The position numbers and the translations under genes are program-made. Positions 14,987 to 63,425 of a DNA stretch of 64,000 nt are shown here, in pieces; within the stretch, counting starts at the first letter, position 1, and every line of letters starts with the position of its first letter. The notes below the pieces were generated by a model. That model saw only the letters and a list, made by a program, of their open reading frames with translations. It did not search any database and was not told where the DNA came from. Source of the stretch: Eledone cirrhosa (taxonomy: Eukaryota); NCBI GenBank assembly GCA_964016885.1, contig OZ024745.1, forward strand, positions 24,242,001 through 24,306,000, written 5' to 3'.

Positions 14987-15386
14987 CCAGGGAGTGTAAC
15001 TGTAGGTTCACCCGGGTGAGCACTCAATGTTTAGGTTCACTTCAGTGTTGAGGTGTAGAGCTAGACAGAGTGTATTATAGTGAAATAAAATAACAAGGAC
15101 GATTGGTTACTCCTTCATTACGTTTATTGGTTGGTGACGCGCGTTTCGCCACTGATCAGCTCAAGGTTCGATCTGTATCGATCTATCCCGACTCTGTAAT
15201 CCGCGGCTAGTCAGACCCATCATTTTTCCATTACTATTGTAAGAGGTCTGACGAGCCGTGGATTACAGAGTCGGGATAGATCGATACAGATCGAACCTTG
15301 AGCTGATCAGTGGCGAAACGCGCGTCACCAACCAATAAACGTAATGAAGGAATAACCAATCGTCCTTGTTATTTTATTTTACTATA
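14987..15386. mobile_element. Fold-back element family B: arms 15076-15217 and 15245-15386, tail 14987-15075
   Basis: Near-perfect inverted repeat of about 140 bp with a 27-bp loop, flanked by TA/TG microsatellites and containing a hammerhead core. Confidence 0.85.
15245..15329 (+). ncRNA. Type I hammerhead ribozyme motif (PLE-like, long stem II)
   Basis: ggt CTGACGA gcc..ggc GAAA cgcgcg TC acc. Palindromic stem III; stem I only 3 bp. Confidence 0.65.
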
Positions 15387-16074
15387 TATATGTGTGTGTG
15401 TGTGTGTGTGTGTGTGTGTGTGTGTGTGTGCGTGCGTGCGTGCGTGCATGTGTGTGTGTGTGTGTGTGTGTGTGTGTGTGTGTGTGTGTGTGTGTGTGTG
15501 TGTGTGTGTGTGTGTGTGTGTGTATGCATGTGTGTGTGTGTGTGTATGCATGCATGTGTGTGTTTTTTCTGTGGAAGTAATTAATCCAATTTGCTATGTG
15601 AATATGCTTCGCTGAGGTGATCTAATAATATTGAAACATATTCGCTGCTTTCACCAAGTTGGTGTAAATCAGGGTCCACTCATATGTCGTTACGTAAAAA
15701 TATTTGGTAAAATGTAACCATCTCAATCAATATTTTCCTCTACCCTCAAAAGAGTCTTCAACAACACACACACAATAGAATGTAAGAAAATGATCGTGAT
15801 TCTAAACTAACCTTGGCTCCCAACAGACTAACTAATTTAAGAAGATGCATTAAAAAATCAAAATTAATTAGATATAGAAATAGAAATATAAAACTTTTTT
15901 AAAAAAAGCATACACAATGGAAATACTAACATCAAACATATAAACACTAAGAATATAATTCCCCCTGACAGACATAGCACAAACAGAATTAAGAAAATAA
16001 ATACAATACTATAAAACCAAACCACAACATATTCCCTGAGTATTGACTGAACTGAGGAAAACTGAAGAAAGACA

Positions 16075-17510
16075 CAGCTAATAGATATGTTTCTTTTATT
16101 TGCCACCAGGGCATCAAAAGTGGGACAAGTACAATGGGGGAGTTTACAAAACAAGGCGTCCTCAATAAGGAGGAGGCAATAACAAAATATAAAAATAAAA
16201 TAAAATATAACAATAAAATATATAACAAAATCCTCAATAGAGAAAAAAGTGTGCAACCCTTTTCCTCAGGAGCACAGAGAAGGGGTGCTCCCTTGGTCTT
16301 TCATCTTCCTCACCTATAGTCTGATGTAGAGTGAAGGCCCATTCACACGGGCCATTCTCGCCACTTTCACCCATCTTTCATAAAAACGGCTGGGGTGCAG
16401 CACCTCTCTCTCCATCCTGATCCTTCTTCCGAAATGATATCGGAAGAAACGGACCAGTTGTTGGCCAGAGAGAAAGGTGTCTGACCTCAGTCCTTTCAGG
16501 CGCGTCCACCATACAACCTCTTTCGCCATGGCTATTACGCACAGAAACACCACCTCTCCTTCGTTTTTGAAGAGGGGAGGCGGCTTGATCGTTACAATAG
16601 ACTCGGTGGTCAACCGGATCGGTCCCACCCTTGACAGCAGTTGTTCGACATAGCCCCACAGATCAGCAATGCCCGAGCAGTGTACCAATGCGTGTGCAAC
16701 GGTTTCCTCGTCGCACACGCATCTGGGACAGATCTTTTTCGAGGGGTCCCTACCCGGGCGCCCGTGTCTGTAGAGCCTTTCTCGAACGGGCAGAGCCCTT
16801 CTGTAGCATTGCCAGGCCAGGCCGAACAGGTTGGCCAGTTCGTCTTCCTCCATGCCTAGGGCTTCTCCGAGGGCGTCGTCGCACCTGCTAACCACCAGCC
16901 CTCTATAGAATGACGAGGTGGATTCTCCACTGACAGCCGGGTCCGCCTGCCAGAGAGCCGTGAGCGCCTGGGCACACTCGGTGTGCCAGGCGCCCAGTTT
17001 TCTCGGTCTTTGCTTGACCCAGGATTGCAGCTCGGTGAGTGAGACGAGTCTGGGAAAGGCTCGCCTCACAAACGGGGCCCACACCGGTTGACCGGAGAGG
17101 AATACCTGGAGGTGCCGTAGCCTTAATGCGTGTTTACGTATCATTAGCCACAGCATACCCAGCCCTCCTTTCGAAGGGTGTTGACAGCAGATGGATCTCC
17201 TCACCATAGGAGCCCGCTTCTTCCAAAGGAATTGGAAGAGTGCGCGCTCCATTTTGGCGAGCGTTTCCCTTGGGCAAGGCACAACGGTCAGGCGGTAGTA
17301 GATGACGGACGCTATATAAGTGTTCGCCACCTCCGCCCGACCTTTCAGGGACAGTTTGCACTCGGCCCACTTCTGGGTCAGTGCAAACACCCTGTTCGTT
17401 ACCTCACCTCAGTTCTTCTCCACCTGGAGGTCTGGTCCGAACCAGACCCCGAGCAACTTCACCGGGCCCTCCGTCCAGCGCCCGACGACGCCATGGGAGG
17501 GCATCGATCT
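16075..17510 (-). mobile_element. 5'-truncated Tx1/L1-clade LINE (ORF2 C-terminal part 17390-16314 plus 3' UTR)
   Basis: KLLGVWFG, LSLKGRAEVANTYIAS, GGLG and CPRC..EETVAHALVHC (zf-RVT-like). AATAAA on the minus strand near 16100. GC-rich against the flanks. Confidence 0.9.
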
Positions 17511-17539
17511 GATAGATATTAATGTAAATAGGAAAGTTA

Positions 17540-17750
17540 GGGTGGTGGATTAGTAGTATCGGTAGAGCGTCGGACAATACGTTTTGTGGCATAGAGTTAC
17601 GGCTCTTTACATTCTGAGTTCAAATCCCGCCATTCATCCTTACAGAATCGATAAAATAAAGTATCAGTAATACACTGGGGGGGGGGTCGATTTAATCGAC
17701 TTTCCCCTGCCCCAAAATGGTTGGCCTTGTGCCTAAATCAGAAACCAATA
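17540..17750 (+). mobile_element. tRNA-derived SINE with 14-bp target-site duplication
   Basis: Family motifs. TAAATAGGAAAGTT occurs at 17525-17538 and 17751-17764. Confidence 0.92.
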
Positions 17751-62300: not shown

Positions 62301-62639
62301 TATGGAAGCTCTATACACACATAGGCATCCATGCATATACATAATGAGGTATCTGTGTGAGACTCTGGTTGTTGCTCGCTACTGTTTCTCCGTTGAGTGA
62401 TTGTCTATATCCAAGTACTTCTTTAAATACACAATAATAACATAACCAAAATCCCAGGACTTACAAATATACAGAGCAAACAAAAAATATCACAACTAGG
62501 CACCGCACACATATTACGAAGAGTACTCGCTTCGTGACTGCCTCAAACAATTCGATTGGTATCTGCGACATTGCGGCTACAACTTCGATAAAAATCTATT
62601 GAATAGATAGGGTGTGGTAAAAACCAGCTAGACTATAAC

Positions 62640-62771
62640 CAACCGGAGTACTCGATACTTGGGGTAGTAAAGTGAGTAATATAAAAAGATTCATGACCCC
62701 GACGGCTGAGCTCCGGATCTAGCTGTCGAAACAGCCGGAGCTCAGCCGTCGTGGTCCTAAATCTTTTCATA
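62640..62771. mobile_element. Mini fold-back (inverted repeat 62680-62771) carrying the 3' half of a hammerhead, plus tail
   Basis: CGACGGCTGAGCTCCGG / CCGGAGCTCAGCCGTCG. GAAACAGC..GAGCTCAGCCGTC is shared with 30254-30276. Abuts (TA)n. Confidence 0.7.
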
Positions 62772-63294
62772 TATATATATATATATATATATATATATAT
62801 ATATATATATATATATATATATATATATATATATATATATATATATATATACATACATACATATATATATATATATATATATATATATATATATATATAT
62901 ATATATATATATATGAGAGAGACGTAAAATAAGAAAATTATAAAAATTAACTTACTTACTAAAATTTCACTCCAACTAATTAGTTTCTGAAAGGGATTAA
63001 ACATAGTTTCCGAAGAAACGTAAGGAGGAGCCTTTCGTCAATCGGGAAGTCTATTCTCAGCTAAGTTTACAGGCAATACGTGGACACAGGGAACTTATAC
63101 AAAAATAATTCAGTAGATGGAAAAAAAGCAAAGCGTGGACTAAGTTCCAAGCCATTGAAAAAATCACTGCCTACTGCGTCGGTGGCAAATTCAAAAGAAT
63201 CAATCACGTGACATCGAGGTCAATCAGTGAAGAGTGGTTTGTTAAGAAGACAGCAGCCGGACCGTTACTATGAACTATAGTAGCAGTTTTGGCC

Positions 63295-63425
63295 AATTTT
63301 GGCTCGACAAAATAATTTGGAGATAATTATAAACAATTAGTATATCTACTAACATATATATACACATGCATCTGTATATATATGCATCTGTATATATATG
63401 TTAGTAGATATACTAATTGTTTATA
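63295..63425. repeat. Short fold-back (inverted repeat 63328-63425) abutting (TA)n
   Basis: TATAAACAATTAGTATATCTACTAACATATATATAC is perfectly inverted. The left flank on the minus strand reads TCTCCAAAT..TGTCGAG. Confidence 0.7.

Follow-up and report, generated by a model that had tools for sequence, protein, structure and literature searches.

The subject of this analysis is a 64,000-nucleotide stretch of Eledone cirrhosa DNA, henceforth referred to as the window; it comes from an animal genome of 3.0 Gb and is rich in repeats. Masked self-comparison revealed numerous short palindromes and inverted arms embedded in (TA)n. The biggest inverted structure of the window, the 59k insertion at 56330–59497, contains a fragment of an open reading frame (ORF) whose full-length form encodes 739 aa. 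The parts of this insertion are as follows.

56330–56587, minus strand: inverted arm of the 59k insertion, a copy of 59142–59407, stopping at site A against (TA)n
56604–57959, plus strand: 5'-truncated ORF of Hydra-clade Penelope-like type, with the end of the RT core, thumb, CxCx5C linker and GIY-YIG
59299–59365, plus strand: predicted hammerhead ribozyme motif of type I within the pLTR, with its core at 59307, GAAA at 59345 and limits set by eye
59408–59497, plus strand: tail, lying between end A (59407) and end B (59495–59499)

The full-length protein (P0001, 739 aa, locus L002) is encoded by a single ORF and combines an RT with a GIY-YIG endonuclease at the C-terminus. Hydra-clade Penelope-like elements (PLEs) are distinguished by RWK and by DKT in place of DKG; P0001 reads RWR, a conservative variant, and DKT. 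It also carries the diagnostic CxCx5C linker and the CxxC and CxH around conserved E and N, without CCHH, and its C598 and C612 are invariant across 67 homologous sequences. Canonical hammerhead cores are predicted in the pLTR at 59307 and 29497, and (TA)n adjoins every scored insertion end. The elements are accordingly classed as Hydra-clade Penelope-like retrotransposons, an assignment made from motifs, hammerhead and target against the diagnostics of PMC8557442 and not from a tree. A search with the 739-aa protein returned 159 homologues at E ≤ 1e-30, of which the named close ones came solely from Argonauta hians. Its predicted structure (pLDDT 89.9) had TERT as the top structural match (E 1e-9, TM about 0.35–0.42). 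The 451-aa Hydra fragment matched no family in Pfam, and a metagenome scan with the single protein found no relative, while a scan with an alignment did find relatives.

A preliminary description of the window had cited eight stem-loop motifs just beyond the points where inverted arms stop. All eight were present, each within 2 nt of the position first reported, and are given below as hairpins together with their surroundings.

59413–59432, plus strand: hairpin 1 of the 59k family, ACUC/CAA/loop/UUG/UU bulge/GAGU, 5 nt beyond end A
26511–26535, plus strand: hairpin 1 of the 26k/11k family, 4 nt beyond palindrome 26289–26506, tail limit near 26592
11543–11567, plus strand: hairpin 1 of another 26k-family copy, which lacks most of its direct arm
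29597–29625, plus strand: hairpin 1 with decayed upper stem in a solo direct copy, hammerhead core at 29497
15022–15071, minus strand: hairpin 1 with a long loop, 4 nt beyond palindrome 15076–15386, tail limit near 14987
55416–55436, minus strand: hairpin 1, GCUC/GAGC, adjoining palindrome 55437–55663
62650–62677, minus strand: hairpin 1, 6 nt beyond palindrome 62684–62767, in a diverged copy resembling end cluster 1
63302–63323, minus strand: variant hairpin UCUC/GAGC, 4 nt beyond arm 63328–63425

The proposed closeness to the arm boundary held in all six copies with a true inverted arm, where the gap from arm end to motif was 0–6 nt (59k, 5 nt; 26k, 4; 15k, 4; 62k, 6; 55k, 0; 63k, 4), with each junction uncertain by a few nucleotides on account of TA microhomology. 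The motifs at 11.5k and 29.6k had been placed at an equivalent position, which homology to armed copies supports, but a complete partner arm is absent from both. The families had been taken as unrelated; those that can be traced to an ORF are instead all Hydra-clade PLEs. For the 15k and 29k families, neither an ORF nor a second hairpin was traced. The 63k hairpin is one of two in a non-coding tandem unit of ~560 nt, which here reaches about 62915.

Enrichment of the motif at arm ends was assessed in a genome sample of 1.064 Mb, larger than the window, which contained 500 inverted pairs. Among these, 144 had one end on a microsatellite while the other ran on, and a complexity filter reduced them to 133 one-sided arm ends in 48 sequence clusters. 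The motif started 0–15 nt past the arm end at 50 of the 133 ends and in 18 of the 48 clusters, and every other bin from −120 to +115 held at most five ends with a motif. In 200 shuffles, a mean of 0.26 clusters and a maximum of 3 carried the motif (background 0.0064 per 16 nt). The anticipated fixed spacing from motif to arm boundary was thereby found again in the larger sample. The opposite strand also gave 14 of 133 matches in the 0–15 bin because the lower stem is self-complementary. The strict motif was absent from the remaining 30 clusters; among them are PLEs of other types, repeats that are not PLEs and variants not caught by the strict pattern. Past the long end of cluster 3 lies one motif match that is unexplained.

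Three other identities for the motif were rejected: a microsatellite artefact by the same end analysis, a 5' splice site by the lack of an invariant GT, and part of the hammerhead by its separate position 45–110 nt downstream.

The motif consists, in order, of RCUC, an upper stem, a loop, the upper stem again, a 2-nt 3' bulge and GAGY. The stem-loop first described is therefore a hairpin as claimed, but not a plain one, being built of two stems with a 2-nt 3' bulge. The upper stem spans 1–7 bp, the loop 1 to about 60 nt, and the bulge almost always starts with U; in other hosts GAGY is usually followed by ACU. Base pairing was analysed in 77 instances from 50 ORF families found in marine metagenome and genome-collection contigs. 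These instances were chosen by the two 4-mers and position only, because circularity was to be avoided, and 29 of 94 foreign loci, which were without an ORF start, were excluded. In the register with a 2-nt bulge, the Watson-Crick fractions at upper-stem positions 1–3 were 0.77, 0.62 and 0.58, compared to 0.46, 0.30 and 0.25 after permutation (p = 0.0005, the floor of 2000 permutations, which ignore phylogeny). No other register exceeded its own permutation as much, and three cells in these other registers showed significant mutual information without excess pairing. In a 56-row alignment of hand-picked short-loop instances, double-sided changes numbered 60, compared to 24.7 ± 3.7 in shuffled alignments that likewise ignore phylogeny, and each slid register was worse. 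Compensatory variants of the lower stem were also found (UCUC/GAGA, GCAC/GUGC and GUUC/GAAC). Covariation, the check named in the preliminary description, is thus present across 50 families from other marine hosts, and solely in the 2-nt-bulge register.

Predicted stability of the hairpin is weak (−0.4 to −8.4 kcal/mol). Upper-stem G-U and A-C pairs stand at 13:9, a ratio that favours neither strand and neither RNA nor DNA as the acting molecule. A covariance model trained on 56 hairpins, all from other hosts, placed seven of the eight window motifs within its 10 best window matches, with E < 0.01 for two only, and missed the long-loop 15k copy. A relaxed structure descriptor was too noisy for statistics and was dropped (138 sense, 108 antisense and 63 shuffled matches). 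Rfam 15 gave no match in the window at gathering score.

The preliminary description dealt with one hairpin per insertion, and the pair of hairpins described in the following was absent from it. The 5' UTR of these elements carries two copies of the hairpin about 60–120 nt apart, in the order hammerhead, end A, hairpin 1, end B, hairpin 2, ATG. Each copy lies 0–9 nt beyond one of two fixed insertion-end sites, A and B, and the tail is the stretch from A to B. In the 59k family the two end sites are sharp and about 90 nt apart. A hand count of 52 pLTR copies at 30 loci gave 18 that end at A, 8 that end at B, 13 that continue and 13 that are cut by the locus edge. The 13 continuing copies run on into hairpin 2, which lies 3–7 nt past B, and into the ORF, whose ATG follows another 40 nt on. 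Hairpin 2 after end B of the 59k family was seen just in tandem pLTR-ORF copies outside the window (L002, 597–616). The prediction of a second hairpin was then run for the 26k and 55k families; in tandem copies elsewhere (for 55k, locus L343), hairpin 2 was found 6–8 nt past the long end and was followed by a Hydra ORF. A tandem copy of end cluster 1 likewise carries hairpin 2 and a Hydra ORF, and in additional clusters hairpin 2 is present but has a single mismatch or only a short upper stem.

The same layout was observed in other hosts, where the hammerhead lies at about −190, hairpin 1 at about −110 and hairpin 2 at about −45 before the ATG, with 59–83 nt between the hairpins. At least one sequence-anchored instance lay less than 200 nt from the ORF start in 40 of the 50 families, and at least two in 26 of the 50. 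Copies of the same family ended 0–9 nt before a hairpin in 21 of 27 cases counted by hand and elsewhere in 6; the count omits matches in TA alone, hammerhead matches between different families and two internal duplications. Among six published Hydra consensi (PMC8557442, File S7), inspected by eye in part of that file, three contain an exact hairpin, two a variant, and one stops short; the hairpins are unannotated in the entries covered. The non-coding ~560-nt unit keeps both hairpins, 117 nt apart, and its copies mostly terminate before them, although one of its ends lies away from any hairpin.

The outer ends of inverted insertions obey a pairing rule. Forty loci were picked by ORF similarity alone, and 30 had a scorable pair of outer ends. 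One end was A and the other B in 29 of the 30 insertions (22 and 7 in the two assembly orders), with one A-A pair and no B-B pair; under independence this has P = 2.5e-8, and two of the loci look like one duplicated insertion. In the genome sample, A was paired with B in all scored insertions of clusters 1, 2 and 5 (23/23, 13/13 and 10/10, respectively). Cluster 8 was excluded, its low-complexity probe having produced 137 hits and 14 of the 16 A-A pairs; without it, 92 of 96 pairs were A with B, a total in which single-member clusters are circular. Clusters without the motif also followed the rule (13/14 and 5/6), and the pairing therefore does not need the hairpin and is a general PLE trait. 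At the most, the hairpin is how the Hydra clade achieves this pairing.

The preliminary description interpreted the motif as a cis-signal for RT binding or priming that fixes where the inverted copy begins. A signal of this kind is still the best reading, with binding inferred, but its tie to the inverted copy did not stand. The ORF-bearing copy stops at the same two sites, and because the tail is found on the ORF-bearing or the inverted copy alike, the signal does not belong to the inverted arm alone.

The anatomy of the 5' UTR and the A-with-B pairing of outer ends are direct observations. From them we infer binding, a dimer, priming and joining, and we think it probable that the two bulged hairpins are two RT-binding sites on one RNA which set two internal RT starts, one for each nicked strand. 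The element protein, probably as two copies, would bind both hairpins of one transcript, and its GIY-YIG domains would nick both strands of the (TA)n target. Each 3'-OH could then anneal over 2–6 nt to the UA-rich RNA immediately 5' of a hairpin and start cDNA synthesis at that place. The two cDNAs would halt at variable points and be joined head to head, and the expected product is an inverted insertion with A at one end and B at the other and with the A–B tail on one arm only. For a Poseidon PLE, Frangieh et al. (2024, PMC11167929) report, in the text available, internal RT starts at two sites that bound the tail; each of the two target strands was cleaved and extended, the RNA lying 3' of the starts was needed, and a dimer was predicted. 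One transcript with two hairpins is the simplest account when the anatomy is read together with these Poseidon results.

A different role for the hairpins, which we regard as unlikely, is to direct a cut of the RNA just 5' of each copy, target-primed reverse transcription then starting from the new 3' ends. Some 5' ends do immediately precede a hairpin: of the 36 inner (5') ends counted for pieces of the 59k family, 4 are at site A (post hoc P = 0.003), further examples occur at loci L207 and L246, and the published Hydra-1_Ajap consensus begins 2 nt before hairpin 1. Inner ends at A are not predicted by the twin-hairpin model. A cut at A would, however, remove site B, and the A-with-B pairing in 29 of 30 insertions would call for a pair of RNAs cut at different places on each occasion. 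The PLE examined in vitro starts internally, and its product was unchanged when the RNA 3' end was longer, according to the available text of PMC11167929.

The hairpins might alternatively act in DNA, extruded or in single-stranded cDNA, and guide the GIY-YIG endonuclease to trim or resolve a few bases 5' of them. The 13:9 pair ratio is compatible with such a role, the tail was ascribed to endonuclease resolution in the consulted part of PMC8557442, and the Drosophila virilis Penelope tail is needed for endonuclease recognition of plasmid DNA, as cited in the available text of PMC11167929. The latter text nonetheless places the boundaries of the tail at the positions on RNA where the RT starts, and loops of 1 to about 60 nt on upper stems of 1–7 bp would not be expected to extrude from duplex DNA. 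Action in DNA is judged improbable.

That the hairpins serve translation or transcription, and that ends adjoin them merely since AT-rich tracts pair with (TA)n, is rather less credible still. Both hairpins belong to the 5' UTR, the ATG following hairpin 2 by about 45 nt, and their 5' flanks are AT-rich. The entire pLTR is AT-rich, yet there are just two end sites, and a longer TA-compatible tract beside hairpin 1 of the 59k family is not used as an end; both hairpins are moreover kept in the non-coding unit. Finally, an antisense RNA template, with the hairpins as stop signals like the telomerase template boundary, is very improbable: antisense self-priming of PLEs has been proposed (PMC3846280, in the text covered), the pairing data leave the strand undecided and the predicted fold is closest to TERT, but ends that are fixed at 3' and variable at 5' are characteristic of priming on sense RNA, a stop model leaves the A-with-B pairing without a cause, and sense RNA works in vitro in the available portion of PMC11167929.

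The preferred reading, two RT-binding hairpins on one transcript, may be taken a step further. Tentatively, and with slightly less than even confidence, the element could use a programmed form of twin priming, in which the duplicated hairpin brings both subunits of a dimeric RT-endonuclease onto a single transcript, each subunit copies into one side of the double nick from a fixed start of its own, and hairpin spacing sets tail length. The hairpins would then form a portable module of ~110 nt, already borrowed by non-coding tandem repeats and able to place whatever RNA lies upstream into (TA)n. In L1 twin priming, a single RNA is primed from the two target nicks alike, with an inversion as the outcome, and the second start is a random internal match. 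Here, in contrast, both starts would be fixed, with a separate hairpin for each, and the two cDNAs would overlap.

Telomerase RNA stems are bound by the TERT RNA-binding domain and position the RT on the template. The hepatitis B epsilon element is similarly a bulged stem-loop that acts in cis to position the RT at a defined template site (PMC10534774, in the part available). Neither epsilon nor telomerase RNA matches the hairpin in sequence; they prime from protein or from a telomere end, whereas the elements described here have two copies and would prime from nicked target DNA.

Earlier work had established this class of element, its tail and initiation at two sites. In the text covered, the Hydra clade of Craig et al. 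(2021, PMC8557442) has the same protein motifs, pLTR hammerhead, (TA)n target, inverted 5'-truncated copy and tail at one end, but its tails are 30–40 nt, compared to 60–130 nt here. The word "hairpin" is absent from the main text of that paper, which, to the extent covered, contains no description of the motif, of its duplication or of the A-with-B pairing. Poseidon PAc of Anolis carolinensis, as presented in the available text of PMC11167929, shares with the scheme proposed here two internal starts that bound the tail and the cutting of both strands; its starts lie in an ORF stem-loop rich in AC, whereas the ends here lie 5' of hairpins in a UA-rich 5' UTR. The PAc RNA drawn in Fig. S1B of that paper has, by eye, no RCUC...GAGY hairpin, and neither a binding motif nor a duplicated signal is reported in the text covered. 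The duplicated hairpin is likewise undescribed in the accessible portions of PMC8557442, PMC11167929, PMC4209133, PMC3846280 and bioRxiv 10.64898/2026.07.22.740005, and no published description of it and of its spacing to both ends was found in the open-access literature searched.

A second family in the window, at 48–51 kb and encoding 1217 aa, has three fixed ends, DKS and a CxxxxCxxC linker; it looks Neptune/Nematis-like by motif, not by tree. The hairpin motif was absent at all three of its fixed ends. Being absent from these DKS-type ends and from the PAc RNA, the hairpin is not a pan-PLE signal.

PLEs are the sister group of telomerase, and their RNA recognition and their inverted copies with a one-sided tail were an open question in PMC8557442 that PMC11167929 partly answered, as far as the available text of both goes. 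The twin hairpins, if they are start signals, would account for the puzzling one-sided tail. Because the motif is small, covaries and keeps a ruler-like distance from either end, the question becomes directly accessible to mutagenesis, binding and structural work, and the hairpin pair might serve as a compact signal for RNA-templated insertion. It is also diagnostic for Hydra-clade elements and their non-coding passengers. Elements of this kind are very abundant in the present genome, where a first look at a single family returned 90,917 candidates.

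Both Hydra hairpins are retained in a non-coding tandem unit present in the window and at a comparison locus, L303:

62915-63425, minus strand (also L303 7165-8860): non-coding tandem unit of ~560 nt

A pattern search of this unit did not find a canonical hammerhead. The unit is likely a passenger of Hydra elements.

Some inner (5') ends start exactly at site A, directly before hairpin 1, as observed at the following comparison loci and in one comparison block:

L285, L286, L293 and block C5b: inner ends at site A, 59k family
L207 and L246: inner ends at site A

The RCUC/GAGY hairpin is absent from a second Penelope-like element (PLE) family, both in its window copy and at loci L295-L306:

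48361-50900, minus strand (also L295-L306): second PLE family, 1217-aa frame with an Asn-rich insert

This family is highly abundant (22,029 candidates at first look), and its 3' ends in these copies fall at three fixed positions.

Hydra-type elements were also found in 17 contigs (L238-L254) that carry bacterial MAG or symbiont-genome labels; contamination by host DNA is the most likely explanation.

The tail of end cluster 7 (e.g. block C2 94603-94880) starts with ACUC and a 4-bp upper stem and has CGGU at the expected GAGY position; this start is possibly a variant of the hairpin motif. Within the arms at 15076-15386 lies a hammerhead-like motif whose stem II is very short and whose core reads CUGAUCA, with C at position 8, rather than CUGAUGA.

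The window contains several other repeats:

20421-21245: nested inverted family, two fixed ends, tail of another kind
1456-1647 and about 10 further places: SINE-like dispersed repeat, ~190 nt
16314-17520, minus strand: non-LTR element fragment with a zf-RVT domain
2900-8080 and 42600-45650: extended minisatellite arrays rich in GGT/CAC, mutually opposite in orientation

The minisatellite arrays dominate inverted-repeat searches. In tandem copies of the nested inverted family, a GC-rich hairpin comes next.
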